Shown: in pieces, positions 11,546-39,516 of the stretch
How positions within the stretch are numbered: the stretch's first letter is position 1
How the letters are laid out: every line of letters begins with the position of its first letter
Assembly (NCBI GenBank): GCA_045587745.1
Contig: JAZNCU010000047.1
Span: 76-64,075, forward strand
Direction: 5' to 3'
DNA length: 64,000 nt
Origin: Eubacteriales bacterium
GTDB taxonomy: Bacteria > Bacillota > Clostridia > Oscillospirales > CAG-382
Position numbers and translations under genes: made by a program
Notes under the pieces: model-generated
Told to the model about the DNA's origin: nothing
Seen by the model: the letters and a program-made list of their open reading frames with translations, nothing else
The model's database searches: none

Positions 11546-12535
11546 ATGAATAATAAAGGAAGCGATTCCTACAAAAATATCTATATGACAACGGGCTTTA
11601 TTTGTGCGTTTATAGGTATACTGCTGGTTGTTATAGTTATCTCCTTGGTTGTGTTTGGCAACTTTGGAAAAGGAAGTGATGTTTTGGATGAGTCGTCTGC
11701 TCCTGAGATATCTGTGCCTGTTGTTGAAGAATCGTCTGTTCCCGAAATATCCGAGGTTGAGGAGGAAACTCTCGCCTCTCAAATCGTTTTTGAACAGTTG
11801 GTGGTAAATAATTTGTCGGTTTACGAGGGTAAACTTGCTGTCATCAGCGCCGAGAATGCTCCGGCAGTACCCTCTGACGAGCTTTATGCCTTTTATAAGT
11901 TTGGAAGCGAGGGAAGCGCATATTCGCTTTCGGGTGTAAGGATCAAGGTGCGTGAGGATGCTCGCACACAGTTTGATGCGTTTCTGGCGGCGTTTTCCGA
12001 GGCAGTTCCCAATACCGGTCTCATCATTGATAAAGGATATGAAAAGGCGGAAGATCTCAGCACGAGCGATCTTTCGGGTGGCTACGTCGATCTTGCATCG
12101 GGCTATTCGGTAAAGTTCTCGTTGCTCAGCAGTAACTATAACTTCAGCAGCACCGAGCTTGCTTATTTATATGAGCAGGCGTATAAATTCGGTATTATCA
12201 GACGTTATTCCGATAATAAAGAAACTGTTACAGGCTTTGAGTCCAATCCTCGTCTGTATCGCTATATCGGAATTGCCCACACACAGTATATGAGCACGTA
12301 TAACCTCTCGCTGGAGGAGTATATTGACGTTCTGAAGAGCAGTACCGAGCCCAGAGAATATGTCAGCTCGCTTGAAGATAACACGGCTTATATTGTCTAT
12401 TACGTGCCTATGAGCGAGGGCGATGACACCACTTTGGTTAACGTTCCTGCTGATGCCGCAAGGTATCCTTACGACATCTCGGGTGATGGATCAAACGGTT
12501 TCATCGTTACCGTAAAGGTAAGCCTTTCCGAGTAA
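11546..12535 (+). CDS. Membrane-anchored VanY/M15B-like domain protein that appears to lack the metal ligands
   Basis: N-terminal TM helix. The C-terminal region aligns by eye with D,D-carboxypeptidase VanY (KFGIIRRYSDNKETVTGFESNPRLYRYIGIAHTQYM...LSLEEYI). The SxHxxGxAxD and EPWH positions read ASGYSVKFS and NPRL. Confidence 0.55.
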   Translation: MNNKGSDSYKNIYMTTGFICAFIGILLVVIVISLVVFGNFGKGSDVLDESSAPEISVPVVEESSVPEISEVEEETLASQIVFEQLVVNNLSVYEGKLAVISAENAPAVPSDELYAFYKFGSEGSAYSLSGVRIKVREDARTQFDAFLAAFSEAVPNTGLIIDKGYEKAEDLSTSDLSGGYVDLASGYSVKFSLLSSNYNFSSTELAYLYEQAYKFGIIRRYSDNKETVTGFESNPRLYRYIGIAHTQYMSTYNLSLEEYIDVLKSSTEPREYVSSLEDNTAYIVYYVPMSEGDDTTLVNVPADAARYPYDISGDGSNGFIVTVKVSLSE

Positions 12536-12582: not shown

Positions 12583-13016
12583 GTGTAAAAATATTGGGAA
12601 AATAGCGAGAACAAATGTTTTGTGCGAAAGATCATCACGTAAAAAAATTAAGGCTGAATTTGTGCAAAAACACCCATAATTTCCGACAAAAAATCTCGAA
12701 TTTGTGAACAGGCAATCTGCGAATTAACGTACAGTTAATTTTCTGTGCATTTTATTTCGTGATAAAATGTAACCGAAATTTATAATAGCGGTTAACGATC
12801 AAGCTTGCTAGTGCTGAAAAACACCTGGTATTACAGGGAAAATGAAATTCAAACACCAAAATGTTGATTGACATAATTATTTAATTTAATTTTTGAGATA
12901 AAGTTTCATTCCGGAAAATTAACGGTTGAGTTTTGCCGTATTTTGTCCGAAAAAAACCTGCAATTTGCTCAGTGTGTGAAAAATGCATTATTTTGAGTAT
13001 GAGTTTATATGCACTC

Positions 13017-13045
13017 TTGACAAAGAAATGACGATATGCTATTAT
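13017..13045 (+). promoter_or_regulatory. Sigma-A-type promoter of the 13.1-25.7 kb operon
   Basis: TTGACA (13017-13022), 17-nt spacer, TATTAT (13040-13045), with TGC immediately upstream of the -10. Confidence 0.6.
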
Positions 13046-13058
13046 TTCTCATATATTA

Positions 13059-13087
13059 TATACTCGTGCGCATTGTGCGCGAGTATA
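13059..13087 (+). promoter_or_regulatory. Inverted repeat in the 5' UTR (operator or RNA hairpin)
   Basis: TATACTCGTGCGCA ttg TGCGCGAGTATA, located between the -10 element and the AGGAGG RBS (13101-13106). Confidence 0.4.
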
Positions 13088-13113
13088 AGCACTTCTTCGC
13101 AGGAGGAAAAGAA

Positions 13114-16100
13114 ATGACCAAACACTGGAGAAAGACCAAAAACGCATGTGTATTTACGCTGACACTCGTACTGCTGTTTACGGGTCTCGGCGGAATTTAC
13201 GCTTCTGCGGTAGGCGATTATCTCGCCGGGTCCGACTCTCTGTACCGTACCTCGCTGGATGATGTGGAGAACTATTTGACCTCTACCACTTACTCCGATT
13301 ATCTCAGCATTTACGGCTCTACAGAGATGGGTTCCGACGTAGAACTCGACCTGTCCGACGTCAACGTGGAGGGCTCTAACGGCACTTACCTGCTGTTTGA
13401 TTCTTCCAATGCTCCCGAAAACAGTGATGAACTTACCGCAGGACTCGAAAGCGGTGAGAATATCCTGGTTGCCGGTGACGACTGTACCATTACCTGGAAC
13501 GTCAACGTAGCCAAGGATACACTCTACAACGTTTACGTGGAGTATTACACCGGTAACTTCGATCTTGGCGATCACTTGGTTTCCAAATCAGCTACGATCG
13601 AGCGCTACGTGCTCATCAACGGTACCGTTCCCTTTAAGGAAGCACGTTCCGTTGAGTTTGAAAGAGTTTGGAGCGATTTATACAGCGTAGTTGATGCTAA
13701 CGGAAACTACATTCTTGATGAGAACGGCAATCAGCAGACTTTCCTTTCTAACAGTCGGGAATTTCTTGATTTCGTTCTGAATCAGGAAAACAACACTGCC
13801 GAGAGCCATAGGCTTTTTGTCCGCGACAGCAACGGCAATGAGCTTAAGCCCGACAAGGCTCTTGTTTCCAAATGGACCGGCAAGACTGTATTCGACTCGA
13901 CCGGATATTTCAACTCTCCTCTTTGCTTCTTCTTCAAAGAGGGAAGCAATACCTTCTCAATTCAGTCCATCCGTGAGCCGATGGCTATCAAATCCATCAA
14001 GCTCATCGCAGCTGAGACTGTTCCCACCTATGAGCAGTATCTTGCTTCCCATTCCGGCGCATCCGACTATGCCGGCGATGAGCAGATCATAATTCAGGCT
14101 GAGTATGCGGTTTCGACCTCTGAGAGAACTATCTACCAGCTTAATGACAGATCCTCCAGCTCGTCTCAGCCCCAGGATGCTGCTCTTATCCGCCTTAACG
14201 AGATCGGCGGCGATAAATGGCAGTACGTCGGACAGTGGATCACTTGGCAAGTAGATGTGCCCGAGTCAGGCTTCTACTCGATCATTCCCCGTTCGATTCA
14301 GAACTACTACTCCGGTATGTACGTTTCGAGAAGAGTTTACATCAACGGAAAGCTCCCGTTTGAAGAGGCTAACTACCTCCGCTTCGATTACAATCACGAG
14401 TGGATTACCGAGCCTCTCAATGACGGCACTACCGAGTTCAAATTCTATCTCGAAAAGGGTGTTAATGAGATTAAGCTCGAGGTTGCTCTCGGCGACATGT
14501 CGGAGATACTCAGCACTATCGAGAATTCTCTTTCTACCATTAACACTTACTACCGTAAAATACTTATGATCACCGGCCCCGATGCCGACGAGTACCGTGA
14601 CTACGGATTTGATAACCTCATTCCCGACGTACTCAAGGGACTCCAGCAGCAGTCCAAACTTCTTTACGAGGTTTCGGATACGCTTACCGAGCTTACCGGT
14701 GAAAAGGGATCCCACGCTACTACACTTGACCGCGTTGCTCTCATTTGCGAGCGTATGGGTTACTATCCCGATAACATTGCAGCCTCCATGGGCATTCTCA
14801 AGGAGTATTCTGCATCTCTCGGTACCTGGCTTACCGATACTCAGAACCAGCCCCTTGATATCGACTATATCTGCATTCAGGCTCCTTCAGCAGAGGCTCC
14901 CGATGCAGAAGCAGGTTTCTTTGCAAACCTTTGGTATGAGCTTAAAAAGTTCTATCAGTCTTTCTTCAACGATTATAACTCCCTTGGCTCTGTAGAATCC
15001 GAGGAAGATACCTCTAATAACATTCAGGTTGAGGTATGGACCGCTTCCTCCCGTGACCAGGCGCAGATTATACGTACCCTTGCGGACGATGACTTTACGC
15101 CTAACTATGCGGGTATTTCGGTTAATATCAACCTCGTTGCCGGCGGTACGCTCCTTCCCGCTACACTTGCAGGCACAGGCCCCGATATTTATCTCGGCGC
15201 GTCACAGGGAGATCCTGTTAACTATGCTATCCGTTCTGCAGTTCTTTCTTTGAACACCCAGACCGGCAACCCCGAGGTTGGTTATAACTTTAACGACCTT
15301 GAGAATTCTGTCTGGAACTCCAAGGACGAGAGCGGTAACTACAAATATCCCGCATACCACGCTCTTATTGAGAATGGTGCCATCAAGTCCTTTGATGAGG
15401 TCACTGATTGGTTTGCTGATGAGGCGCTCGTTCCCGTTACTATTTACGGTGAGACGTACGCAATTCCCTGGACGATGTCCTTCTCGATGATGTTCTATCG
15501 CAAGGATATCTTTGTTGAGCTTGGAATCGAGGTGCCCAATACCTGGGATGATTTCTACGATATTATATATGCACTTCAGTCTAACTCGCTTGACATCGGA
15601 TTCCCGACCGGTACCGGCGGATCGATGTTTATGATGTATCAGCAGGGTGACGAGCTTTATGATGTCGGCAACTACGATTATTATCTCGATTTGTTCAGGA
15701 GATATCATTACGACGGCGATGACTATGACAGTCTTTCCGCCGAGCAAATTGCCGAAATCGACAAGGAGCTCGATGAGCTTGGATACACCTACAAGGATGC
15801 AGACGGCAACCTTTACACCAAGACCGACGGTATGAGCATCAACCTTGACTCGGATATCGCTCTTGCAACCTTCCAGGACGTTTGCCGCCTGTTTACCGAT
15901 TACAGCTTCCCTGTATCGTATAACTTTGCAAACCGTTTCCGTTCCGGCGAGATGCCTCTTGCGGTTATCGACTATACCTCTTATAACACACTCATCGTAT
16001 TTGCACCCGAGATTAACGGTCTGTGGGAATTCACTCCGCTTCCCGGTACTGCTGATAAGCTTACTCAGGAGGTTAACAACGTTACCATCGGCGCTATTTC

Positions 16101-16566
16101 GACCATTATGATGATGCGCTCTGTTAACGAGGAAACCGCTCTTGCTGCTTGGTCGTTTATGCAGTGGTTTATGAGTGCTGATATTCAGAGCTCCTACGGT
16201 AATGAGATGGTTGCGTTGCTTGGTCCTTCGGCTAAACAGCCTACCGCAAATATTTACGCACTTCAGGATATGGCGTGGTCTACCGATGAGTATAACAACC
16301 TCTTTGCTCAGTTCAATGCGGTTGCGTGTACTCCCGAGTTCCCCGGAAGCTATATTATCGGACGTTACACAGGATTTGCGTTCCTCGACGTGTACAATAA
16401 CGGTGCCAACCCTGTCGACGAGTTGCAGTCCTACATCAACGATATCAACGTTGAGCTTACCAGGAAGAGGGAAGAGTTCGGACTTCCCACTACGGATTTC
16501 ATAAAGGATATGGAAGCCGCTGTCGAAGAAAAATACCCCGATTGGGAGAAAGGAGCAGGTAATTAA
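13114..16566 (+). CDS. Giant extracellular solute-binding protein: duplicated beta-sandwich (CBM-like) modules, helical linker, family-1 SBP domain
   Basis: Start moved to ATG 13114 (MTKHWRK..., signal peptide), 8 nt after AGGAGG. Internal repeat ERYVLINGTVPFKEA / RRVYINGKLPFEEA. The C-terminal ~550 aa are SBP-like (QVEVWTASSRDQAQ..., PWTMSFSMMFYRKDIF). Confidence 0.75.
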   Translation: MTKHWRKTKNACVFTLTLVLLFTGLGGIYASAVGDYLAGSDSLYRTSLDDVENYLTSTTYSDYLSIYGSTEMGSDVELDLSDVNVEGSNGTYLLFDSSNAPENSDELTAGLESGENILVAGDDCTITWNVNVAKDTLYNVYVEYYTGNFDLGDHLVSKSATIERYVLINGTVPFKEARSVEFERVWSDLYSVVDANGNYILDENGNQQTFLSNSREFLDFVLNQENNTAESHRLFVRDSNGNELKPDKALVSKWTGKTVFDSTGYFNSPLCFFFKEGSNTFSIQSIREPMAIKSIKLIAAETVPTYEQYLASHSGASDYAGDEQIIIQAEYAVSTSERTIYQLNDRSSSSSQPQDAALIRLNEIGGDKWQYVGQWITWQVDVPESGFYSIIPRSIQNYYSGMYVSRRVYINGKLPFEEANYLRFDYNHEWITEPLNDGTTEFKFYLEKGVNEIKLEVALGDMSEILSTIENSLSTINTYYRKILMITGPDADEYRDYGFDNLIPDVLKGLQQQSKLLYEVSDTLTELTGEKGSHATTLDRVALICERMGYYPDNIAASMGILKEYSASLGTWLTDTQNQPLDIDYICIQAPSAEAPDAEAGFFANLWYELKKFYQSFFNDYNSLGSVESEEDTSNNIQVEVWTASSRDQAQIIRTLADDDFTPNYAGISVNINLVAGGTLLPATLAGTGPDIYLGASQGDPVNYAIRSAVLSLNTQTGNPEVGYNFNDLENSVWNSKDESGNYKYPAYHALIENGAIKSFDEVTDWFADEALVPVTIYGETYAIPWTMSFSMMFYRKDIFVELGIEVPNTWDDFYDIIYALQSNSLDIGFPTGTGGSMFMMYQQGDELYDVGNYDYYLDLFRRYHYDGDDYDSLSAEQIAEIDKELDELGYTYKDADGNLYTKTDGMSINLDSDIALATFQDVCRLFTDYSFPVSYNFANRFRSGEMPLAVIDYTSYNTLIVFAPEINGLWEFTPLPGTADKLTQEVNNVTIGAISTIMMMRSVNEETALAAWSFMQWFMSADIQSSYGNEMVALLGPSAKQPTANIYALQDMAWSTDEYNNLFAQFNAVACTPEFPGSYIIGRYTGFAFLDVYNNGANPVDELQSYINDINVELTRKREEFGLPTTDFIKDMEAAVEEKYPDWEKGAGN

Positions 16567-17501
16567 TGGCTAGAGAAAAAGCGGTCATAAGATCGGACAT
16601 CTCCTACGCTAAGTGGACCCTTATTGAGATGAAGAAGAACAAGGCCGGCTATTTTATGTCGCTGCCGTTCTTCCTCCTGTTCTTCATATTCACGGTTTCG
16701 CCCGTATTGCTCTCACTCATACTCAGCTTTACTACGTTCAACCTCCTCGAGTGGCCCACATGGGTTTTCGCTGATAACTATATCAGATTGCTCCTGGATG
16801 ACGACATTTTCCTTACGGCGATCAAGAATACCATCAAATTCGCCATTATCACCGGTCCTTGCTCTTATCTTTTGAGTATGCTTTTTGCATGGTTCATCAA
16901 CGAGCTCAGACCTAAACTCAGAGCGTTTGTTACACTTCTGTTCTACGCTCCGTCCATTTCGGGTAACGTATACCTTATTTGGACACTGTTCTTCTCCTCC
17001 GACCAATACGGCTATGTTAATGCATGGGGTATGAAGCTCGGCTTACTCAAAGAGCCCGTGCTTTGGTTCCAGGATGAAAAGTACATTTTCGGACTTATCA
17101 TTGCAGTTGCGCTGTGGACCTCACTCGGTACCTCCTTCCTTACCTTTATTGCAGGATTCCAGGTTGTAAATAAGGATCTTTACGAGGCAGGAGCCGTTGA
17201 CGGTGTTAAAAACCGTTGGCAGGAGCTTTGGTACATCACGTTGCCCTCTATGAGACCTCAGATGATGCTCGGTGCAATCCTTGCTATCACAGGCTCGTTC
17301 GGCTTCGGCGGTGTTATCACCGCTCTCGTTGGTTTCCCCAGTCCTAACTACTGTGCACATACTATTATGCACCACCTCGAGGACTACGGTAACCAGCGTT
17401 TCGAGATGGGTTATGCATCGGCAATCGCAACTATACTGTTCCTTATGATGATCGGTGCAAATCTGCTGGTAACCAAGATGCTTAGAAAGGTAGGTACGTA
17501 A
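16566..17501 (+). CDS. Carbohydrate ABC transporter permease (MalF/LplB type)
   Basis: Six TM segments and an EAA-type loop (YEAGAVDGVKNRWQELWYITLP). TAATG overlap with the upstream stop. Confidence 0.9.
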   Translation: MAREKAVIRSDISYAKWTLIEMKKNKAGYFMSLPFFLLFFIFTVSPVLLSLILSFTTFNLLEWPTWVFADNYIRLLLDDDIFLTAIKNTIKFAIITGPCSYLLSMLFAWFINELRPKLRAFVTLLFYAPSISGNVYLIWTLFFSSDQYGYVNAWGMKLGLLKEPVLWFQDEKYIFGLIIAVALWTSLGTSFLTFIAGFQVVNKDLYEAGAVDGVKNRWQELWYITLPSMRPQMMLGAILAITGSFGFGGVITALVGFPSPNYCAHTIMHHLEDYGNQRFEMGYASAIATILFLMMIGANLLVTKMLRKVGT

Positions 17502-17502
17502 T

Positions 17503-18420
17503 ATGGATTTTCAGGAATTAAAAGCCAAGTACATACGCTACCGTAACATACGTCTTCAGAACAAAACTCAGTTTACGCGTTCCATCAACCGCAGTAAGGG
17601 CGGCGACGTAGGTATATTCATTATGCTTGCAATCGTTGCGGTTGTAATGGTACTGCCAATGGTGTACGCCATTTCTCAGTCACTCAAGCCGCTCGATGAG
17701 CTGTTTGTATTCCCGCCCAGGTTCCTTGTTAGGAATCCTACCATGAATAACTTCCGCGATCTGTTCAATCTTATGAACGATTCCTGGGTGCCTTTCTCGA
17801 GATACATATTCAACACCGTGCTTATCTCGGTAGGCGGTACCTTCGGTAACGTTATTCTTGCATCCTATGCGGCATACGCGCTCGCAAAAATCAAGTTCCC
17901 CGGCAGAAACTTCCTGTTTTCACTGGTTGTTTACTCCCTGATGTTCAACTCTCAGGTTACCGGCATCACCAACTTTATCACGATGTCGGCTCTCCGTTGG
18001 GTTGACTCCTATCTCGCAGTTATCGTACCTGCATGGTGCTATACCTTTGGTCTCTACCTCATGAAGCAGTTTATGGAAACCTCAGTTACCGACTCGGTTC
18101 TTGAGAGCGCAAGACTTGAGGGAGCAGGGGAGAACCTCATTTTCTGGAAGATAGCAATGCCGATGGTAAAACCTGCTTGGATCACTCTTATCATCTTTGC
18201 TTTCAAGGATCTGTGGAATATGGGCGCCAGCCTCTACATCTACAGCGAGCAGCTTAAAACATTCAACTACGCAATCAGCCAGCTGGTAACGGCAGGTATT
18301 GCACTCTCCGGTGTGTCGGCAGCTTCCACTGTATTGATGATGATTGTTCCTATCTTCGTATTCGTTATTACGCAGAGCAACGTTATCACTACGATGTCGA
18401 CCTCCGGTATGAAGGATTAA
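17503..18420 (+). CDS. Carbohydrate ABC transporter permease (MalG/LplC type)
   Basis: TM profile and EAA loop (LESARLEGAGENLIFWKIAMP). Starts 1 nt after the upstream stop. Confidence 0.9.
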   Translation: MDFQELKAKYIRYRNIRLQNKTQFTRSINRSKGGDVGIFIMLAIVAVVMVLPMVYAISQSLKPLDELFVFPPRFLVRNPTMNNFRDLFNLMNDSWVPFSRYIFNTVLISVGGTFGNVILASYAAYALAKIKFPGRNFLFSLVVYSLMFNSQVTGITNFITMSALRWVDSYLAVIVPAWCYTFGLYLMKQFMETSVTDSVLESARLEGAGENLIFWKIAMPMVKPAWITLIIFAFKDLWNMGASLYIYSEQLKTFNYAISQLVTAGIALSGVSAASTVLMMIVPIFVFVITQSNVITTMSTSGMKD

Positions 18421-18436
18421 GAGGGGAGGTTAATAT

Positions 18437-20647
18437 ATGAAGAAAAGAATATTAAGCGCACTTCTTATATGCCTCGCACTCGTTGTCCTTCTCGGCACAG
18501 TAACTGTTTCGGCTATCGTTCCTTATACGTCTTATACATATAACGTATTCGGCTTTATGGCACAAAGCCCCCACGCATACGTGCCTCTTACGATTGTTGA
18601 CAGCACGACCATTTCCTTCTCGGTCACTGACGAGGGTGATGCAAGTGACAACGCAAAGCTTCTTTACGGTGACGGCGCAACCTTTACCGGTCTCGATTCG
18701 CCCAAAGATGTATTTGTTGATGATCTCAACAACCTTTACATTGCGAATACCGGTAAGAATCAGGTTGTAGTTCTTGACGAGGGATACAATCTCCGTCTCG
18801 TAATCAGCACGTTTACCAACCAGTTCGGTGTACCTGATGCACTTTCTTCTCCCAGCGGTATTTTTGTTACCGATAACGAGATTTTTGTTGCCGACACCGA
18901 TAACTCCCGTATTGTTGTTTTCGACAAGCTCGGTAATTTTGTACACATCGTTCCCCAGCCCGAGAGCGAGGTGCTTCCTGAGGGAACCGTATACAGACCT
19001 GTTGCTGTTTCGGTTGACCATGCAGGACGTATCTACGTTGTTGCATCCTCGGTGAACTACGGCGTAATTTCTCTTAACCGTGACGGCTCCTTCAACGGAT
19101 TTATCGGTCCTCAGAAGGTTACCTACAACGCTTGGGAATACTTTATGCGAATGTTCAAAACAGCCGAGCAGCTCGAGGCGAGCGAAAAACAGGTTTCCAC
19201 CGAGTTTAACAACCTCACCATCGACGCTGAGGGCTTCCTCTACGTTACGACCAACTCTATCGATGAGGGTCAGATGGGTGCTGCTATCAAAGGAAACGAC
19301 AAATCCGGTGACTATGCTCCCGTTAAAAAGCTCAATCCCAGCGGTACCGACGTTATGAAGCGCGAGGGATTCTGGCCGCCTTCCGGTGAGGTCGATTTCC
19401 AGAACTTTGCTTCTGCTGAGTTTACGGTAAGCGGTCCTTCCTCTATCGTTGACGTTGCTCTCGGTCCCAACAATACCTGGAGTATTATCGACCAAAAGCG
19501 CAGCAGAGTATTTACCTACGATTCCAACGGTAACCTTCTCCACGTTTTTGGTGATACAGGTAGCCAGATCGGTAATATTACTAACCTCGTTGCTATCGAC
19601 TATCAAGGCACAAATATGCTTCTCCTTGACAGATCGAATAACAATATCACGGTTTACAAGCGTACCGAGTATGGCGATCTTCTTGCTCAGGCTATTCAGA
19701 ACAGCGAGGATAAAAACTACGATAAGGCTGTTGAATACTATATCGCTATTCTTCAGCGCAACAATAACTATGATACCGCTTACGTAGGCATCGCGGACAG
19801 CTTGTACCGTGACGGTGAGTACGTTCAGGCAATGAAGTACTACAAATACGCCTACAATACCGAGGATTATTCCGAGGCTTACCAGGCATATCGTAAGATA
19901 TGGATGGAGGAGAATATCTGGCTGATCCCCTTGGTTCTTATCGTTCTCTTGGTTGCGATTACTAAATTCTTCAAATATGCCAACAAGGTTAACAGGAGAA
20001 TGCGCAAGCTCGACGAGAAGACAACGTTCTGGCAAGAGATTCTTTACGGCTTCCATGTAATCTTCCACCCGTTTGACGGCTTCTGGGATCTCAAGTTTGA
20101 GAAACGCGGTTCGTTCAGAGGCGCCTGCTTCTGGCTGCTCATTACTGCACTTACATTTGTGTATAAGGCAGCCGGTGTTGGATATCTTTCCAACCCCACC
20201 GATGCAGCCCCGAATTACTTTATAAACGCTATTTCGATGGTTCTTCCCGTTATCCTTTGGGTTGTTGCAAACTGGTGTCTTACCACACTGTTTGACGGTG
20301 AGGGAAGCATGAAGGACGTATTCATTACTACCTGCTATGCTCTCGTTCCGCTGCCTATGATCCACATTCCCTGCGTAATGCTTTCCAACGTTATGACGGC
20401 AAGCGAGCTTGAAATGCTTGACATGGCAGCAAGCTTTGCAATGATCTGGTTCGTAATGCTCGTGTTCTTCGGCATGATGGTTATTCACGATTACTCGATC
20501 ATTAAGAACTTCATAACAGCATTGTTCTCGCTCGTGGGAATTGCACTTATCATGTTTATTGCATCGCTCTTCTCGTTCCTTCTTACCAAGCTCTACACGT
20601 TCTTCTTCAACATCTACGTTGAGATTGAACCCCGAATTACATCGTAG
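18437..20647 (+). CDS. Signal peptide, NHL-repeat beta-propeller, TPR segment and C-terminal Yip1-like multi-TM domain
   Basis: Repeats of the type VFVDDLNNLYIANTGKNQVVVLD and GIFVTDNEIFVADTDNSRIVVFD. TPR-like YDKAVEYYIAILQRNNNYDTAYVGIADSLYRDGEYVQAMKYYKYA. About five TM helices in the last ~230 aa. Confidence 0.65.
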   Translation: MKKRILSALLICLALVVLLGTVTVSAIVPYTSYTYNVFGFMAQSPHAYVPLTIVDSTTISFSVTDEGDASDNAKLLYGDGATFTGLDSPKDVFVDDLNNLYIANTGKNQVVVLDEGYNLRLVISTFTNQFGVPDALSSPSGIFVTDNEIFVADTDNSRIVVFDKLGNFVHIVPQPESEVLPEGTVYRPVAVSVDHAGRIYVVASSVNYGVISLNRDGSFNGFIGPQKVTYNAWEYFMRMFKTAEQLEASEKQVSTEFNNLTIDAEGFLYVTTNSIDEGQMGAAIKGNDKSGDYAPVKKLNPSGTDVMKREGFWPPSGEVDFQNFASAEFTVSGPSSIVDVALGPNNTWSIIDQKRSRVFTYDSNGNLLHVFGDTGSQIGNITNLVAIDYQGTNMLLLDRSNNNITVYKRTEYGDLLAQAIQNSEDKNYDKAVEYYIAILQRNNNYDTAYVGIADSLYRDGEYVQAMKYYKYAYNTEDYSEAYQAYRKIWMEENIWLIPLVLIVLLVAITKFFKYANKVNRRMRKLDEKTTFWQEILYGFHVIFHPFDGFWDLKFEKRGSFRGACFWLLITALTFVYKAAGVGYLSNPTDAAPNYFINAISMVLPVILWVVANWCLTTLFDGEGSMKDVFITTCYALVPLPMIHIPCVMLSNVMTASELEMLDMAASFAMIWFVMLVFFGMMVIHDYSIIKNFITALFSLVGIALIMFIASLFSFLLTKLYTFFFNIYVEIEPRITS

Positions 20648-20665
20648 AAAGGAGTGTAATTAATA

Positions 20666-23611
20666 ATGAAAACTAAATTTTTGAGATTAATCGCACTTAC
20701 TCTCTGCGTGCTTATGCTTATGTCTTCGCTACTCTCGCTCACCGCACTTGCTGAAGAATCTGCTGCAAGTGACAGCGAAGAGTCCGAGGATGTCGATATT
20801 TGGGAGACTCTTAAGCCTGCATATATGGCTACGGCATATACCTCTATCACCGATAGAATGAAAGGTGACGATGTTATCGCTCCTATGGAATGCTTCTGCG
20901 TGATCGACGGATACGCATTCTACGGCGATCGTCTTACCGGTGAGATGGTTTTCCTTAAGCTCACCGATCCCACTCTTACCAAAGAGGCTATCGATGAAAG
21001 CGGTGAGATTCCCGAATACACCGCATATTACAGCACCAACCCCTATAATATCGGCTCTGCTTCTGCTCTCGGCAGCACTCAGTCTACTGCCGCTACCGAG
21101 AAGGAAAAGCTCTATTCTCAGATCATTATCAAGTATTCTGAGAATGATAAAGACTCCGAGATGAACTCCTTTGCTTCTGCTGCTGTCAACGATCAGATCA
21201 CTGTTAAGAATATTCGTAACGGTGTCCGTGTTGAATATACCATCGGACGTGAAGAGGTAAAATATCTCGTTCCCCGTCTTATCAGAGCTGAGAAGTTCCT
21301 TGCCCTTAAGGAACAGATTGCTACCAACTCGACCTCCAAGCGTGATGCCGAGGTGTTCAATGCATTCTATCAGGAAAAGGACCTTGATAAGGCCTCCACG
21401 ACAAAGAGCCGTGAGGAAATGAAGGCTGCATATCCCATCACCGAGCAGTTCCCTGTTTACGTATGTGAGCCTATTATTTCAACTCAGGAGCTCCTTCGTC
21501 TTGAGCGCTTAGTTAAATCCTATACCGATTATGACTACGAAACTCTTGATGCCGACCACGCCGAGACTGATTACGTCGCTGCCGATAAGGTTCCTCCGCT
21601 GTTCAAGATGGCTCTTGAATATAAGGTTGACGGCGATGAGATCACTATCCGCTGCAAGGCGGGTAATATCCGTTTCGACTCGTCTGTTTACAAGCTTTCC
21701 GACGTTATAATCCTCCCGTACGGCGGAGCCGGTGACTGCAACAATAGCGGTTACATCTTCTCTCCCGACGGATCGGGCTCGTTGCTCGACTTCTCCGATT
21801 TCTCCAGCTCGTTCACGTATAGCACAAGCCTTTACGGTCAGGACTACGTATATCACACCATTACCGGTGCGCATATGGAGGTAGCAAGACTTCCCGTTTA
21901 CGGCGTATACCAGAAGGTTGAGAACAACTCCACCGCTTTGGAAGAGGTTCCCGTGCTTGATGAGAACGGTGAGCAGACCTACGATGAAGAGGGTAACCCC
22001 GTTACCGAGCTCGTAGAGGTTTCGGTACCTCTCGAGATCGCTTATCTCGCAGTAATCGAGAGCGGCGCATCGCTTGCAAGCGTAAACATTATGTATGGCG
22101 GTGCACTTCATATGTATGCTTCCGTATATACCTCGTTTAACCCGAGACCCAAGGACTCCTATATCCTTGACGGCGGTATTTCGGCAGGCACTAACGCTAT
22201 GTGGACGGTTGAGTCCAAGCGTAAGTACACCGGCGATTATACTATCAGACTGTTCATCCTTGACGGTACCGAGGACGGCGACGTTGCTCCCGGTATCGGC
22301 GATGCAGATAAATCCTACTCGGATATGGCGGCTGCTTACCGTGAGTATCTTACCGGTACGGGCGTTCTTACTCCTGTTGAGGATACAAAGGATGACATTC
22401 CTCTCTACATTGAGACACTTGGTGCTATTCTTACAAACCGTGAGATACTCGGTATTCCTTACGAGACTGCAGTTGCAATGACCTCCTTCCAGGATGACAT
22501 TGATATGCTCACTCTCCTCAAGGGCGAGTACGATATCGACAACGTTAAGCTCATTCTTTCGGGCTGGTGCAACGATGGACTTATTCCTTACGTTCCCAAC
22601 GATATCGATATCGAAAAGGCTCTTGGCGGCGAGGAAGGATTTAAGGCACTTATCGAGTACTGTAAGGCAAACAATATAGATCTGTTCCCTGAGCTTGAGT
22701 TTGCAATTGCGTACCGTGATCTCTCCTTCGACGGCTTTGATCAGGATGAGGATCTTTCTCAGACTATCGACGATCGTTCCGCTATTATGAAAGAATATGA
22801 TCCTGTATGGCAGGGCTTTATCAGATCCGGTATGGGCGTTATCTCTCCCTCGTATATGAAAAAGCTTTATGCTAATGCAAGCGAGGAATACAATCAGTAC
22901 AACGTAGGCGGAATCGCAGTTCCCAGTCTTGGTCAGTATCTGTCGTCTGACTTTAATACCGATAATCCTCTTACTCGTGAGGATTCCAGGATTCTCGTTA
23001 CTCAGCTTCTTGAGGCTATCGACGGTCATAACGATAAGGTTCTTATCGCAGGCGGTAACGACTATGCACTTCCTTATGCTACCGATCTGATCGATGTTCC
23101 TCTTGATGACTCCCGTTATAAGTATTCCTACGCATCCATACCCTTTATGAGTATGGTGCTTCACGGAAGCAAGCAGTATACCGGTACGGCACTTAACCTC
23201 GCCGGTGACCTTGATTATCAGGTGCTCAAGACTATTGAGAGCGGCGCATCGCCCTACTTTGTAGTTGCTGTTAACAACACGTCCGAGCTCAAGCAGTATA
23301 CCTATTCTTCTGTTTCGCAGTACTATTCGGTACGTTACAGCATCTGGCTCGCTGATATCATCGTTACCTACCGTCAGATCAATGAAGCTCTTTGTGACGT
23401 TCAGGATTCTTATATCCTCAAGCACGATATCCTTTCCTCCGACGGAAACGTTGTTAAGGTTACCTATGCTAACGGCATCAGCTTCTATATCAACTACAAC
23501 ATTACCGATTACGTTGTTAACGATGGCGGTGTTGAGTATGAATTGCCTGCAGAAGGATTCGTTAAGGTTTCTGCTGACGGCACAATTGTGATGAAAGGAG
23601 ACAGTGACTAA
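20666..23611 (+). CDS. Large secreted protein of unknown function (possibly a glycosidase-like barrel; DUF5696-like from memory only)
   Basis: 981 aa with signal peptide LSLTALAEE and RBS AAAGGAG. Central segment LILSGWCNDGLIPYVP...FKALIEYCKANNIDLFPELEF resembles a (beta/alpha)8 sugar-active fold. I can place no catalytic motif. Confidence 0.55.
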   Translation: MKTKFLRLIALTLCVLMLMSSLLSLTALAEESAASDSEESEDVDIWETLKPAYMATAYTSITDRMKGDDVIAPMECFCVIDGYAFYGDRLTGEMVFLKLTDPTLTKEAIDESGEIPEYTAYYSTNPYNIGSASALGSTQSTAATEKEKLYSQIIIKYSENDKDSEMNSFASAAVNDQITVKNIRNGVRVEYTIGREEVKYLVPRLIRAEKFLALKEQIATNSTSKRDAEVFNAFYQEKDLDKASTTKSREEMKAAYPITEQFPVYVCEPIISTQELLRLERLVKSYTDYDYETLDADHAETDYVAADKVPPLFKMALEYKVDGDEITIRCKAGNIRFDSSVYKLSDVIILPYGGAGDCNNSGYIFSPDGSGSLLDFSDFSSSFTYSTSLYGQDYVYHTITGAHMEVARLPVYGVYQKVENNSTALEEVPVLDENGEQTYDEEGNPVTELVEVSVPLEIAYLAVIESGASLASVNIMYGGALHMYASVYTSFNPRPKDSYILDGGISAGTNAMWTVESKRKYTGDYTIRLFILDGTEDGDVAPGIGDADKSYSDMAAAYREYLTGTGVLTPVEDTKDDIPLYIETLGAILTNREILGIPYETAVAMTSFQDDIDMLTLLKGEYDIDNVKLILSGWCNDGLIPYVPNDIDIEKALGGEEGFKALIEYCKANNIDLFPELEFAIAYRDLSFDGFDQDEDLSQTIDDRSAIMKEYDPVWQGFIRSGMGVISPSYMKKLYANASEEYNQYNVGGIAVPSLGQYLSSDFNTDNPLTREDSRILVTQLLEAIDGHNDKVLIAGGNDYALPYATDLIDVPLDDSRYKYSYASIPFMSMVLHGSKQYTGTALNLAGDLDYQVLKTIESGASPYFVVAVNNTSELKQYTYSSVSQYYSVRYSIWLADIIVTYRQINEALCDVQDSYILKHDILSSDGNVVKVTYANGISFYINYNITDYVVNDGGVEYELPAEGFVKVSADGTIVMKGDSD

Positions 23612-24597
23612 TGAGTAAAGAAGCAACAGTAAACACTTCTCCCGCAGTCAAGGTAAAAAAGAAGAGAAAAGCCGCATCGCTTGATGTTCAAAAATCCCGT
23701 ATGGGTTGGCTTTTCGTAGCACCGTTCCTTATAGGCTTCGTCCTTGTTTATCTTCCTATGATCTTCGATTCCCTCCGCTATTCCTTCGGTACCATCGTGC
23801 GTGGTGTCGGCGGCGCGGCTTCCACAGTTGAGTGGGTTGGACTCGAAAACTATCAGCATGCTCTTGCCGGCGATCCGGAGTTCTCGACCATACTTATAAC
23901 CAGTATCAAGGAGCTTCTGTTTAACGTTCCCGCGATAGTTATCTTCTCGTTGTTTATGGCAGTAATGCTCAACCAGAAGATGCACGGCAGAGCAGTGTTC
24001 CGTGCAATATTCTTTATCCCTGTTATCGTGTCTACCGGTATTATTGAGTCTATCGACCTTCAGAATACCCTTGCCGAGAATATGGAGAATATGAACACTA
24101 CAGGAACCGAGCTTGATACAGGAGATTCCGGCAACAATATTATTAACGTAATGGATATCCAGGGGCTGTTCCAGGGAATGGCGATAGGCGGAGGACTTGT
24201 AAGCTATGTTGTAACGATTGTTAACGACGTTTACGGTATTGTTGGAAAATCAGGTGTACAGATGCTTATATTCCTTGCAGGTCTGCAGTCAATCTCTCCT
24301 GCAATTTATGAGTCCTGCTACATCGACGGTGCTTCCGCTTGGGAGACCTTCTGGAAGATCACATTCCCGATGATCAGTCCTATGATTCTCGTTAATGCCG
24401 TGTATACGGTTATCGACTCGTTTACATCGCAGTCGAACAGCGTAATGAGCTATATTTCGTCCGTATATAACGGAGCGAACGGCCGTGAGCATGCAACGGC
24501 AATGGCTTGGATCTACTTTGTTCTGGTAGTGCTTATCTTGCTTGTAGTAGCAGGTGTAATACGTGCATACGTCTTCTACCAGAGAAAAGATGTTTAA
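23611..24597 (+). CDS. Carbohydrate ABC transporter permease (MalF type), second pair
   Basis: TM profile and EAA loop (YESCYIDGASAWETFWKITFP). TAATG overlap with the upstream gene. Confidence 0.88.
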   Translation: MSKEATVNTSPAVKVKKKRKAASLDVQKSRMGWLFVAPFLIGFVLVYLPMIFDSLRYSFGTIVRGVGGAASTVEWVGLENYQHALAGDPEFSTILITSIKELLFNVPAIVIFSLFMAVMLNQKMHGRAVFRAIFFIPVIVSTGIIESIDLQNTLAENMENMNTTGTELDTGDSGNNIINVMDIQGLFQGMAIGGGLVSYVVTIVNDVYGIVGKSGVQMLIFLAGLQSISPAIYESCYIDGASAWETFWKITFPMISPMILVNAVYTVIDSFTSQSNSVMSYISSVYNGANGREHATAMAWIYFVLVVLILLVVAGVIRAYVFYQRKDV

Positions 24598-24615
24598 GGA
24601 AGGGAGGGTATTTAA

Positions 24616-25680
24616 TTGGATCTTTCTACAATGACCAAACAGGAATTGAAGGAATACAAAAATCAGCAAAAGCGCGAGGAAGCTCTCCGCCGTATCAGAG
24701 CACAGGAAAAAACTCCGTTCTGGATGCGAATGCGATACAAATACCTCACCTTTTACTTCCTTAAAAAGCTCACATGGTCGATCTTCAGATTCATCCTTCT
24801 TGTCGGTATCTCCTACGTAATCATCTTCCCGTATATTTCAAAAATTGCGGGTTCGTTTATGAGCAGAGAGGACTTTACCGATGTTCAGGTGCTTCTGATC
24901 GCAAAATACCCCACGCTCGACACGTATAAGGCTATTATCCGTGATAATGGGTATTTCAGAGCACTGCTTAATACTACAACGCTCTCACTGCTTTGCGGTA
25001 TTTCGCAGACCTTAATATGCTCTATCGTCGGCTACGGATTTGCAAAGTTTAAGTTCAAATTCAAAGGCATCCTGTTTGCCTGTGTTCTGTTCACTATGAT
25101 CGTTCCTCACGAGACTATTCAGCTCTCGATGTTTATGACGTTCAACAATATTGACAGATTCGGAATTCTTGACCTTTTGCTTGTAAAGACCGGCGTTATA
25201 AAAGAGATTCCCACCTTGCTTAATACGTATTGGCCTTGGGTAATACTTTCGCTTACCGGACTTGCGCTAAAGAACGGACTGTTCATATATATTATGAGAC
25301 AGTACTTCAACGGCGTACCCGATGAGCTCGAGGAAGCAGCCTACGTTGACGGAGCAGGAATTATCAAGACCTTCGTACAGATCATTCTTCCTATGTCTGT
25401 TCCGATGATGGTAACGATATTCATGTTCTCGTTCTCGTGGCAGTGGTCGGATACCTTCTACACCAACCTCTTCTTCGTTAGCTCCAAAGCGCCCATACTT
25501 ATGCCCGATATCGTTAAAATCCCCACCTCTCTTGATACAGACTACGTTTCGCAAACCGCATATGAGGCTGCGATCCGTAACACCTGCGGACTTCTTATAC
25601 TGCTTCCGCTGGTTATCATCTATCTGTTTGCGCAGAGAACTCTTATTGAGGGTGTTGAACGAAGCGGTATTACCGGTTAA
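24616..25680 (+). CDS. Carbohydrate ABC transporter permease (MalG type) with a charged N-terminal extension, second pair
   Basis: TTG start 7 nt after GGGAGGG. EAA loop (EEAAYVDGAGIIKTFVQIILP). Confidence 0.85.
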   Translation: MDLSTMTKQELKEYKNQQKREEALRRIRAQEKTPFWMRMRYKYLTFYFLKKLTWSIFRFILLVGISYVIIFPYISKIAGSFMSREDFTDVQVLLIAKYPTLDTYKAIIRDNGYFRALLNTTTLSLLCGISQTLICSIVGYGFAKFKFKFKGILFACVLFTMIVPHETIQLSMFMTFNNIDRFGILDLLLVKTGVIKEIPTLLNTYWPWVILSLTGLALKNGLFIYIMRQYFNGVPDELEEAAYVDGAGIIKTFVQIILPMSVPMMVTIFMFSFSWQWSDTFYTNLFFVSSKAPILMPDIVKIPTSLDTDYVSQTAYEAAIRNTCGLLILLPLVIIYLFAQRTLIEGVERSGITG

Positions 25681-25696
25681 TAGGTTGTACTTAATG

Positions 25697-25727
25697 AAAA
25701 AGGACTACGTCAATGTAGTCCTTTTTT
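25697..25727. terminator. Bidirectional terminator between the ABC operon and the spoVA operon
   Basis: Stem AGGACTAC / GTAGTCCT (25701-25722), flanked by AAAA on one side and TTTTT on the other. Confidence 0.7.
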
Positions 25728-25731
25728 GTTG

Positions 25732-26085
25732 TTATTTTTGCTTACTTTTGAATATAATCGACCACAAAAGCGATAAAAAGAGGGCAGTGGTGATGCCTGC
25801 GGCGGTACCCTTCAAGCCACCGGAGATTACTCCTATGAGCCCGTTTGCATCAACCGCTTCCTTTACTCCCTTCGCGAGTGAGTATCCAAACCCCGTCAGA
25901 GGTACTGTGGCGCCCGCAGACGCAAAATCTGCAATAGGTGCATAAATACCCAGACCGGCAAGTATAACGCCGCTTACGACATATCCTGTCAGTATACGTG
26001 CGCCCGTGAGCTTTGTTTTATCGATAAGGATCTGTGCAGGTATACATATTAGTCCACCTATCAGGAATGCATATAAATAGTTCAT
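25732..26085 (-). CDS. spoVAEB: Stage V sporulation protein AE (SpoVAEb)
   Basis: 117-aa membrane protein (GLICIPAQILID...TVPLTGFGYSLAKG), directly downstream of spoVAD. Confidence 0.85.
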   Translation of the reverse strand: MNYLYAFLIGGLICIPAQILIDKTKLTGARILTGYVVSGVILAGLGIYAPIADFASAGATVPLTGFGYSLAKGVKEAVDANGLIGVISGGLKGTAAGITTALFLSLLWSIIFKSKQK

Positions 26086-27078
26086 TTATGCCTCCGATTC
26101 AATACATACAGCGTGTGCGATGGATGGTATTGTCCTGCTTTGTAATGCGCTGTTTTTGTTCAGCAGTGCGCCTGTGCCGACTGTAAGAATACGCATATAT
26201 TCACCACGTTTGAGCTTTGGAATGAGATATCCGCCGAGTACGGTTGCAAGGCATCCGCATCCCGAACCGCCCGAGTGCATATCCTGTGCCTCGGAATCGT
26301 ATATCAGCCTGCCGCTATCCTCGTATTTTCCGTGCATTATCATATCCTTGCGCTCAAACAGCTCGCAGGCTATCGAATGACCCTCGTGCCCGAGATCTCC
26401 CGTGATGATAAGATCAAAATCATCAATCTTATATCTGCTCATCTTGAAATAGCGTTCAATCGTATCAACTGCGGCTCCTGCCATAGCCGCACCCATATTG
26501 TTCGCATCGCTTATTCCGCGGTCAATAATTCTACCGATTGTTGCTTCGGTAATCTTTATTCCTGTCTTTTCGCTTGTCAAATAAAATGCGCCGCATCCTG
26601 TGACCGTGTTTTGCGCATCGGGAGTGCGTGAGTTTCCGTATTCCAAAGGAAACCGATATTGACGCTCGGCGGTGCAGTAATGGGAGAGCGCAAAGCAAAC
26701 CGCGTTGCTCGTTTTGCCGCTGTCAACAAATACTCCGCCGCATAACAGCGACTCGGCAACCGTTGAACATGCGCCGTACAGTCCGAGGAAGGGGATATCC
26801 GTGCCGTTGACTGCAAAGCTCGTTCCGGTGCATTGTGAAGTAAGATCCCCGCCAAGTATCAGCTCTGTCTGCTCGTGCGTTTTGTTTGCTTTTGAAAACA
26901 GAATATTGAGGCATCTTCTTGCCATCTCGGATTCCGCTTTTTCAAAGCTGTCCTGTCCAAAATATTCATCGTACTCGCAAAGGTCAAAGCAATTTCCGAG
27001 AGGTCCGTCCGCCTCTTTTTTGCCTACAACCGTTGCTGCTGTCAGAATATTGCAGTTGTTGTATTTTATCATCTTCAT
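26086..27078 (-). CDS. spoVAD: Stage V sporulation protein AD
   Basis: 330 aa, thiolase-like. Typical N-terminus (VVGKKEADGPLGNCFD) and LTVGTGALL near the C-terminus. Sits between spoVAC and spoVAEb. Confidence 0.9.
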   Translation of the reverse strand: MKMIKYNNCNILTAATVVGKKEADGPLGNCFDLCEYDEYFGQDSFEKAESEMARRCLNILFSKANKTHEQTELILGGDLTSQCTGTSFAVNGTDIPFLGLYGACSTVAESLLCGGVFVDSGKTSNAVCFALSHYCTAERQYRFPLEYGNSRTPDAQNTVTGCGAFYLTSEKTGIKITEATIGRIIDRGISDANNMGAAMAGAAVDTIERYFKMSRYKIDDFDLIITGDLGHEGHSIACELFERKDMIMHGKYEDSGRLIYDSEAQDMHSGGSGCGCLATVLGGYLIPKLKRGEYMRILTVGTGALLNKNSALQSRTIPSIAHAVCIESEA

Positions 27079-27515
27079 TATATCACCCCGAATAACCAGT
27101 AAATAAACCCGTAAATAACACTTGCAACCGTTCCGTATACTATAACGGGACCTGCAATACTGAACATGCTTGCGCCAACCCCCGTAACAAACCCCTCGGT
27201 TTTTGCTTCTATCGCCGCCGATGCCATTGCGTTGGAAAATCCCGTTATTGGAACAAGAGTGCCTGCACCTGCGTGTTTTGCAATTTTGTCAAAAATACCG
27301 ATGCCCGTAAGCAGACCTGCTATAAAAATGAGAGTCAGCGATGCATAGAGCAGAGCATCACTTTCAGCGGCGCCAAGCCTTAAACACAGCTGTGCGATAG
27401 CTTCTCCGAGCATACATATAATGCCTCCGAAGAAAAATGCTTTCAGACAGTTAGTAAAACAAGGGGAGGACTTTGAATGCTTGCTTGCGATTTCTTGATA
27501 ATCTTTGTTATTCAT
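27078..27515 (-). CDS. spoVAC: Stage V sporulation protein AC
   Basis: 145-aa four-TM protein (AFFFGGIICMLGE...AGTLVPITGFSNAM). Its stop overlaps the spoVAD start. Confidence 0.9.
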   Translation of the reverse strand: MNNKDYQEIASKHSKSSPCFTNCLKAFFFGGIICMLGEAIAQLCLRLGAAESDALLYASLTLIFIAGLLTGIGIFDKIAKHAGAGTLVPITGFSNAMASAAIEAKTEGFVTGVGASMFSIAGPVIVYGTVASVIYGFIYWLFGVI

Positions 27516-29838: not shown

Positions 29839-29899
29839 GCTGTCCTTAAGTATGTCTCCCTTACGGCAGCCCTTTTGGTTTGTTGTCAGTTAATATCTG

Positions 29900-29928
29900 T
29901 TGACTTTTACGGCAGGATGAGGTATCAT
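29900..29928 (+). promoter_or_regulatory. Sigma-A-type promoter for the lyxose isomerase gene
   Basis: TTGACT, 17-nt spacer, TATCAT. Confidence 0.55.
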
Positions 29929-29994
29929 TTAGTAAAAAGAAATACTTGGTTTGTTGCGTACCGTACGCCAAATTTAACCATTAGGAGATTTTAT

Positions 29995-30672
29995 ATGAAG
30001 CGTTCCGAAATCAACAAATTGATACTTGAGAATATCGACTTCATCAAGTCCATGGGCTTTAATCTGCCTCCATTTGCATTTTTTACGCCCGAGCAGTGGG
30101 CAGAAAAGGGAAGTGAATACGATGAGATCCGTGAAAATATGCTGGGCTGGGACGTAACCGATTACGGACACGGTGATTTTGATAGGATCGGACTGTTTCT
30201 GTTTACGGTGCGTAACGGCAATCTTAAAAAGAATACCGTCAAAACCTATGCCGAGAAGCTACTGATCTCTGACGAGGATCAGTACAGCCCGATGCACTTT
30301 CACTTTACAAAGACAGAGGATATTATTAACCGTGGCGGCGGAAATCTGATTATTGAGGTGTATAACGCAACCGAGGACGACAGGCTTGCCGATACAGACG
30401 TTACCGTTAACTGCGACGGACGCTGCTACACCGTACCTGCCGGTACAAAGCTCAGGCTCGCTCCCGGTGAGAGCATTACTCTTCCGCCCAGACAGTATCA
30501 CGCATTCTGGGCAGAGAAGGGAAGCGGCAAGGTGCTTATCGGTGAGGTCTCCTCGGTAAACGATGACAATATCGACAACCGCTTTTACGAGCCGCAGGGA
30601 CGTTTTCCCACTATCGAAGAGGACGAGGCTCCTGTTTACTACCTCTGCAACGAGTACCCAAAGGCAAAATAA
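29995..30672 (+). CDS. D-lyxose/D-mannose family sugar isomerase (cupin)
   Basis: Start moved to ATG 29995 after AGGAG. Collinear with the E. coli O157 D-lyxose isomerase as I remember it (LPPFAFF, MHFHxxKxEDIINRGGGNL, GEVSSVNDD, LCNEY). Confidence 0.88.
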   Translation: MKRSEINKLILENIDFIKSMGFNLPPFAFFTPEQWAEKGSEYDEIRENMLGWDVTDYGHGDFDRIGLFLFTVRNGNLKKNTVKTYAEKLLISDEDQYSPMHFHFTKTEDIINRGGGNLIIEVYNATEDDRLADTDVTVNCDGRCYTVPAGTKLRLAPGESITLPPRQYHAFWAEKGSGKVLIGEVSSVNDDNIDNRFYEPQGRFPTIEEDEAPVYYLCNEYPKAK

Positions 30673-39514: not shown

Positions 39515-39516
39515 AA

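Follow-up and report, generated by a model that had tools for sequence, protein, structure and literature searches.

A stretch of 64,000 nucleotides (nt) from a member of the Eubacteriales (contig JAZNCU010000047.1, positions 76 to 64,075; the whole of this stretch is referred to below as the window) carries a run of seven genes that encode a giant extracellular binding protein, two pairs of ATP-binding cassette (ABC) permeases, a membrane protein with NHL, TPR and Yip1 domains, and a large exported protein of the DUF5696 family. The locus raises the question (i) whether such an assortment of genes constitutes a unit at all and (ii) what that unit would do for its carrier. The cassette is a conserved, co-inherited seven-gene unit, and on balance we consider it probable that the seven genes form one operon for a surface system which captures and cleaves an extracellular glycan and then takes up the products. 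The original prediction made for this locus had likewise suggested a surface machine for polymer capture and import; the suggestion fits all of the evidence presented here, and it remains a proposal.

A conserved seven-gene unit

Related loci were obtained from a scan with one genome per species, and the best 80 of 313 relatives were compared with the window. The same seven genes, in the same order and on the same strand, were found in all 62 loci that are complete, down to 37% identity in the DUF5696 protein; the other 18 are cut by contig ends, and none of the 80 violates the order. The arrangement recurs in three more distant loci (L081–L083), where the flanks are unrelated housekeeping genes. 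Thus, the juxtaposition is not fortuitous, and the co-occurrence of DUF5696, Yip1 and permease genes, which the original prediction had mentioned tentatively, is real. Median identity to the window proteins amounts to 79% and 75% for the first permease pair (P1a and P1b, respectively, as listed below), and to 61% and 66% for the second pair; the Yip1, binding and DUF5696 proteins follow with 57%, 55% and 51%, respectively. All carriers are uncultured bacteria of the Clostridia/Oscillospiraceae type, mostly from the gut of ruminants, horse, rabbit, chicken and human, with a few of environmental origin.

Additionally, the sequence of the cassette is present in goat, sheep and other gut metagenomes. 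In four gut metatranscriptomes from one study, assembled contigs of at least 95% identity lie on all seven genes (13.0–25.5 kb), while almost none lie on 11.9–13.0 kb or 25.5–27.6 kb. This coverage agrees with the promoter and terminator boundaries of the cassette, which are listed here together with its genes:

13017..13045 (+): sigma-70-type promoter, TTGACA, 17 nt, TATTAT, with an extended -10 TG; score 11/12
13046..13113 (+): 5' leader; small hairpin, and CUUC paired with GGAG at the ribosome-binding site, by direct reading
13114..16566 (+): extracellular binding protein, 1150 amino acids (aa); SBP_bac_8, E 1e-11 (Pfam), and a weak CBM_35 match
16566..17501 (+): P1a, MalF/UgpA-type permease of the first pair; BPD_transp_1, EAA motif at residue 207
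17503..18420 (+): P1b, MalG/UgpE-type permease of the first pair; BPD_transp_1, best NCBIfam model UgpE (E 1e-19), EAA motif at residue 201
18437..20647 (+): NHL-TPR-Yip1 membrane protein, 736 aa; Pfam Yip1 E 3e-12 (above cut-off), NHL and TPR
20666..23611 (+): exported DUF5696 protein, 981 aa; DUF5696 (PF18952), E 9e-142
23611..24597 (+): P2a, MalF/UgpA-type permease of the second pair; BPD_transp_1, EAA motif at residue 234
24616..25680 (+): P2b, MalG/UgpE-type permease of the second pair; BPD_transp_1 E 1e-12, best NCBIfam model MalG (E 4e-17), EAA motif at residue 240
25692..25731 (unstranded): bidirectional intrinsic terminator shared with the convergent spoVAE; stem-loop with an A-run before it and a T-run after it

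The list of open reading frames (ORFs), together with direct reading of the sequence, places the seven genes on the plus strand between 13114 and 25680 without sizeable same-strand gaps, and every ORF that had been described as lying between the promoter and the bidirectional terminator was found in its place. The junctions, when read directly, bear out the expected pair of TAATG stop/start overlaps (at 16566 and 23611) and the small intergenic distances; at the other four junctions the genes are separated by 1 nt (at 17502), 16, 18 and 18 nt. A GGAGG-like ribosome-binding site precedes every gene, including the last, which starts with TTG at 24616 and has GGGAGGG 8 nt ahead. The binding-protein gene most likely starts at the ATG at 13114, 7 nt past AGGAGG, and thus specifies a protein of 1150 aa that begins MTKHWRK; the first in-frame ATG (13036), which is the start given in the ORF list, was rejected as it overlaps the promoter.

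A promoter scan alone proves nothing here, since the region has no more promoter-like sites than shuffling would produce (26 observed, 24.3 expected). In 56 of 63 related loci, however, the most distant ones included, the element TTGACAAA...TGnTAT(T/A)AT precedes the binding-protein gene at the same place. Upstream of the -35 box (window 12975–13016), a conserved TGCATTATTTT is followed after about 15 nt by TTATATGCA(C/T)(T/A)C, and both motifs are likewise placed in L001–L012, L050 and L058; they may represent an UP element or the site for a regulator encoded elsewhere. The leader hairpin (GUGU...AUGCAC) is common to the close loci, and leaders are conserved inside sub-clades. The consensus fold of the leader from 11 close loci comprises nine pairs, three of them with compensatory changes, which amounts to weak covariation support, and no Rfam family matched the leader or any of six whole related loci. 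In L066, L068 and L073–L075 the leader is a conserved, GC-rich segment of approximately 270 nt. At the other end of the cassette, the terminator can work both ways because its hairpin is preceded by an A-run and followed by a T-run.

A promoter-like site is also present inside the cassette (20418–20445 (+); TTGACA, 16 nt, AATGAT, with TG; 10/12), at the 3' end of the Yip1 gene and upstream of the DUF5696 gene; it could give rise to a sub-transcript for the last three genes, or be due to chance. Long antisense ORFs (606–705 aa) were observed opposite real genes, on the minus strand, at 18452–20488, 21509–23626, 9164–11185 and 41949–43769; they are probably shadow ORFs that result from a codon usage avoiding TTA, CTA and TCA. 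The two that lie opposite the big cassette genes (678 and 705 aa) are most likely non-coding shadow ORFs, as the sense frames carry conserved domains. Horizontal transfer was considered and rejected on account of the uniform GC content (0.46–0.47 in the cassette, 0.445–0.50 across the window).

The encoded proteins and a proposed mechanism

The domain assignments originally made for the cassette proteins were all borne out by Pfam and NCBIfam. In the binding protein, an N-terminal hydrophobic signal or anchor segment is followed by two carbohydrate-binding module (CBM) domains of the CBM35-like beta-sandwich type, a coiled helical linker and a sugar-binding domain, which is that of a family-1 extracellular solute-binding protein as found in CUT1 importers. 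By hydropathy, the sole hydrophobic segment comprises residues 11–29, and no lipobox was found in the protein. CBM_35 was matched in 6 of 26 relatives of the binding protein (best E 1.5e-6), and a profile search against the PDB retrieved the sugar-binding protein Lin1841 (E 1e-14) along with many other sugar-binding proteins, as well as the CBM35 of cycloisomaltooligosaccharide glucanotransferase (CITase; 5x7g, E 1e-6).

The permeases form a MalF-type plus MalG-type pair, as in CUT1 importers, and this pair is present twice (NCBIfam types UgpA, UgpE, MalF and MalG). All four proteins retain the EAA motif at which an ABC ATPase docks, and P2b has in addition a charged cytoplasmic N-terminal extension of about 55 aa. 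As the identity between the pairs is only 23% (P1a and P2a) and 22% (P1b and P2b), they are, to judge from sequence, old paralogues and not the product of a recent duplication. An ABC ATPase had been reported as absent from the cassette, with potA as the only such gene in the window, and a scan for Walker-A and LSGGQ motifs confirmed this, its sole hit being PotA (36734–37867), which adjoins potBCD; a complete potABCD polyamine importer thus occupies 36734–40776 (+). The same scan found no sugar-type ABC ATPase, and hence not the ATPase of a CUT1 importer, within 10 kb on either side of the cassette in 80 loci, where it returned just a PotA-like gene and one gene of ABC-F-like appearance with tandem ABC signatures. 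ATPases of the MsmX/MsmK type are shared among sugar importers of Firmicutes, and the original explanation of the missing gene by such a shared ATPase is compatible with these results, since the absence holds across the 10-kb flanks of the related loci.

The 736-aa protein consists of a signal or anchor segment, a six-bladed NHL beta-propeller (residues ~30–410), TPR helices (411–492), one membrane helix, a basic cytoplasmic stretch and five Yip1 helices; this layout was modelled with AlphaFold (predicted local distance difference test, pLDDT, 73), and hydropathy agrees with it. A Foldseek search with the model retrieved generic NHL propellers at E 6.5e-14 (TRIM71, Brat and designed Pizza proteins) and no match for the membrane domain, and thus gave no functional clue. 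The Yip1 domain shares one operon with ABC transporter subunits, as in the case of YknW, and its position in the operon is conserved. YknW, a Yip1-family protein of Bacillus subtilis, modulates the assembly of the ABC transporter YknWXYZ (PMC4887032).

The DUF5696 match of the 981-aa protein scores 474 bits (gathering cut-off 25.6). The protein comprises a signal or anchor segment, an acidic linker, an N-terminal domain, a (beta/alpha)8 barrel (residues ~570–910) and a C-terminal beta-sandwich, and is without a lipid anchor. A structure model was built on 34 sequences (pLDDT 79; predicted template modelling score, pTM, 0.77) and searched against the PDB by Foldseek. The best match was 5opq, a glycoside hydrolase of family GH129 (the 3,6-anhydro-D-galactosidase of Zobellia; E 1e-26, target-normalised TM-score 0.68), followed by 5wzn, the GH129 alpha-N-acetylgalactosaminidase NagBb (E 3e-21, target-normalised TM-score 0.70), by GH101 endo-alpha-N-acetylgalactosaminidases at approximately E 1e-12, and then by GH13, GH31 and GH36 barrels. 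The predicted model displays the three domains with a central (beta/alpha)8 barrel that characterise GH129 and GH101. Sequence comparison detects little of this likeness: phmmer found no match in the PDB, none of the 34 members matched a glycosidase model of Pfam, and a profile search returned the same GH129 entries at E 0.9–1.7, in two weak stretches that are collinear with the structural match. The barrel carboxylates D689, D762, E772, D773, D807 and E858 are invariant across the 34 sequences, down to 48% identity, and their conservation makes them candidate catalytic residues. Neither of the two outcomes that had been named as refuting the original prediction was obtained, as the gene order is conserved and, by sequence (Pfam, NCBIfam and PDB searches), neither large protein falls into a characterised family of a known utilisation locus. 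The original statement that no cassette protein could be assigned to a named CAZy family stands at the sequence level but not at the level of the fold, where the GH129/GH101-like model makes the DUF5696 protein a candidate glycosidase and, potentially, the founder of a new family related to GH129 and GH101.

The DUF5696 protein is longer (1416–1725 aa) in the distant sub-clades L066–L075 and L081–L083, and representatives reach 2545 aa. No Pfam domain was found in the C-terminal extensions of the relatives of 1455–2545 aa, which thus offer no hint of a substrate. The annotation of the distant relatives is nearly always blank or 'hypothetical protein [Clostridia bacterium]', with no cultured carrier identified among them, and no indexed paper mentions DUF5696 or PF18952.

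The following mechanism is proposed. The CBM modules of the giant binding protein would hold the polymer at the cell surface, where the DUF5696 protein would cut it to oligosaccharides, probably at an alpha-glycosidic bond; the binding domain would then pass the products to one or both permease pairs, with an MsmX/MsmK-type ATPase, encoded elsewhere in the genome, powering the transport. Since both the binding protein and the DUF5696 protein are without a lipid anchor and the bacterium has a single membrane, something must retain these exported proteins at the membrane. By analogy with YknW, the Yip1 protein may fill this role, for which it is the obvious candidate, and its ectodomain of propeller and TPR helices would make it a membrane platform that keeps the binding and DUF5696 proteins beside the translocators. 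We infer the docking role, the use of one binding protein by both permease pairs and the alpha-glycosidase chemistry from the features described above. A more specific version of this mechanism, in which the Yip1 protein, by means of its ectodomain of propeller and TPR helices, holds the un-anchored, CBM-bearing binding protein together with the founder of a new glycosidase family (DUF5696), likewise un-anchored, directly above two different ABC translocators, so that capture, cleavage and uptake are physically coupled, is put forward tentatively, and we are inclined to doubt it. If it were true, the coupled complex would be a hitherto undescribed type of multi-subunit surface assembly in Gram-positive bacteria, equivalent in function to the 'utilisome' of Bacteroidetes but made of unrelated components.

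Genomic context and rival explanations

Several observations weigh against a system for glycan capture and import. The usual parts of a sugar locus, i.e. a sugar-type ATPase and a cytoplasmic sugar-processing enzyme, are not found within 10 kb of the cassette in the loci that were checked. The original prediction had noted that the cassette encodes no transcription factor, which proved correct, and neither a regulator nor a sugar-catabolic gene was found in the inspected (annotated) flanks of the related loci. Furthermore, the housekeeping surroundings of the cassette would also fit a role in the cell envelope, and we know of no characterised precedent for one binding protein serving two permease pairs. 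The metatranscriptome records are low-depth contigs, not reads, and DNA carry-over is possible. Finally, the DUF5696 protein falls outside GH129 and GH101 by the sequence standard of CAZy, the link to glycosidases being one of predicted fold, and it could be non-catalytic.

The genes around the cassette bear on the main rival explanation and comprise one that may belong with it:

11546..12535 (+): VanY-like membrane-anchored neighbour, 329 aa, with its own terminator and outside the cassette transcript; NCBIfam VanY-type E 7e-23, far below cut-off

This protein has a Ser/Glu/Pro-rich linker and a VanY-like C-terminal domain, and Pfam returned nothing for it at 1e-3. Of the related loci, 45 encode a homologue immediately before the cassette, and L077 and L080 have theirs immediately after it, in this case a clear VanY (E 3e-31); an association of this neighbour with the cassette is possible. 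In approximately 45 loci the upstream pyruvate:ferredoxin oxidoreductase (PFOR) gene is syntenic together with the VanY-like gene, and part of the conservation therefore reflects shared descent. The cassette is equally intact beside other genes, namely those for AlaRS, PurL and MiaB (L066, L080), for HSP33, YicC, Gmk and PriA (L081) and for ThyX and MatE (L083).

Further genes of the window were noted alongside these. PFOR is encoded at 7925–11473 (+) and an AMP-binding enzyme at 27635–29350 (+), while spoVAE, spoVAD and spoVAC occupy 25732–27515 (-), the convergent spoVAE gene itself being at 25732–26085. This PFOR/spoVA/AMP-binding arrangement is syntenic in many related genomes and indicates that the organism is a spore-former of an Oscillospiraceae-like clade. 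A gene of the D-lyxose isomerase family (E 3e-102) is located 4 kb downstream of the cassette at 29875–30672 (+), with no link to the cassette seen in other loci. Among the carriers, L017 and L018 are labelled as belonging to different phyla (Clostridiales UBA12491 and 'Candidatus Margulisbacteria' GWF2_35_9), yet their gene lengths and identities to the window are equal; one of the two bins is probably contaminated or mislabelled.

The main rival explanation for the cassette is that it serves housekeeping of the bacterium's own envelope, i.e. that a surface glycopolymer of the cell (a capsule, for example, or a secondary wall polysaccharide) is trimmed and recycled and the pieces are taken up again, with no foraging involved. 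Such a role is suggested by the position of the cassette among core genes (PFOR, spoVA, AlaRS, PurL, PriA, Gmk) and never beside catabolic ones, by the want of a regulator in the annotated flanks and by a strong promoter of constitutive type that is conserved family-wide; in addition, a homologue of the VanY-like peptidoglycan peptidase persists nearby, upstream in 45 loci and downstream in two. Conversely, CBM35-like modules on the binding protein of a transporter are typical of nutrient capture, the score of the VanY-like protein encoded in the window is far short of the family cut-off, and common ancestry within one clade may simply account for the synteny with PFOR and the VanY-like gene, a synteny that L081–L083 have lost although they retain the cassette. 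We regard the envelope role as unlikely, albeit as the alternative that survives best.

A second rival concerns the DUF5696 protein, which might be a non-catalytic relic with a glycosidase fold that acts as a glycan-binding or docking subunit, for example by standing in for a binding protein at the second permease pair, with the oligosaccharide being imported uncut. The second pair has no binding protein of its own and follows the DUF5696 gene directly, with a stop/start overlap. No glycosidase family is matched at the sequence level, and the position just past predicted barrel strand 4, which is that of the nucleophile in many related barrels, is occupied by Pro or Gly and not by Asp. The six barrel carboxylates, invariant among the 34 sequences, suit an active site, however, and the whole barrel is kept in a very large family, which at 50% identity numbers 5149 clusters with E <= 1e-3; 3154 of these reach E <= 1e-30. 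A purely binding role for this protein appears distinctly improbable to us.

Last, a fortuitous juxtaposition of two unrelated ABC importers and two unrelated exported proteins, for which it may be said that permease pairs of only 22–23% identity must once have been separate transporters, is contradicted by the identical order in the 62 complete loci of different species and in three loci with different flanks, as well as by genes that overlap or abut and have one conserved promoter and one terminator in common, and it is given next to no credence here.

Significance and comparison with known systems

If the cassette is indeed a system for capture, cleavage and import of a glycan, it may constitute a main carbohydrate-acquisition route for carriers of otherwise uncharted physiology. 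A broad clade of uncultured Clostridia (Oscillospiraceae and relatives) from the gut of ruminants, horse, rabbit, chicken and human carries it as a constant feature, and its transcripts were seen in gut metatranscriptomes. The DUF5696 family is large and uncharacterised, and with its GH129/GH101-like predicted fold it is a concrete candidate for a further family of glycoside hydrolases. The cassette also raises the questions of whether one binding protein can serve two translocators, how binding proteins that are not lipoproteins are retained by a bacterium with only one membrane, and what role Yip1 domains have in bacteria.

Known systems resemble the cassette in part. CUT1 importers that depend on an orphan MsmX/MsmK ATPase share with it a family-1 binding protein followed by MalF- and MalG-type permeases with EAA motifs, and a locus without an ATPase gene. 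Unlike these importers, the cassette has two permease pairs per binding protein, its binding protein is an 1150-aa polypeptide with CBM35-like modules, a helical linker and no lipoprotein signal, and its operon embeds two large extracytoplasmic proteins. Similarly, the predicted DUF5696 fold agrees with that of GH129 (NagBb, ZgGH129) and GH101 in its succession of beta-sandwich, (beta/alpha)8 barrel and C-terminal beta-sandwich, while identity is approximately 12% and the DUF5696 protein has some 300 additional residues in its N-terminal region; in the profile alignment, the DUF5696 position that pairs with the Asp of the GH129 'DGW' motif has no conserved Asp (Ser in the window protein).

In the bifidobacterial route for mucin core-1, an extracellular GH101 enzyme releases a disaccharide that is taken up by a binding-protein-dependent ABC importer. 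The logic proposed for the cassette would be the same, with a surface glycosidase of this fold class feeding a sugar ABC importer. The bifidobacterial route differs in having its enzyme and transporter genes at separate, regulated loci, an enzyme that is anchored in the wall, a single permease pair and no Yip1 protein. The cassette is also akin to Gram-positive polysaccharide utilisation loci (gpPULs) and to the Sus-like systems of Bacteroidetes in that genes for glycan binding, cleavage and import are co-encoded, its enzyme being a fold-level candidate. Unlike a gpPUL, it has no regulator that could be found, no enzyme of a recognised CAZy family and no cytoplasmic catabolic genes, and so does not qualify as one, the transporter being present; unlike Sus-like systems, it has no SusC/SusD.

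As in YknWXYZ, a Yip1-domain membrane protein is encoded together with an ABC transporter, and YknW is needed by its transporter (PMC4887032). YknWXYZ differs from the cassette in that YknYZ, an exporter of the MacB type, has an ATPase of its own along with a membrane-fusion protein, and in that YknW has neither an NHL propeller nor a TPR ectodomain. The literature search yielded no paper on the gene combination of the cassette. Its parts are of known kinds, namely an importer resembling the CUT1 type, a barrel resembling that of glycosidases and an accessory protein of the Yip1 type; what is undescribed is their fixed seven-gene combination, with twin permease pairs, a giant CBM-bearing binding protein and a Yip1 protein that carries a propeller and TPR helices.

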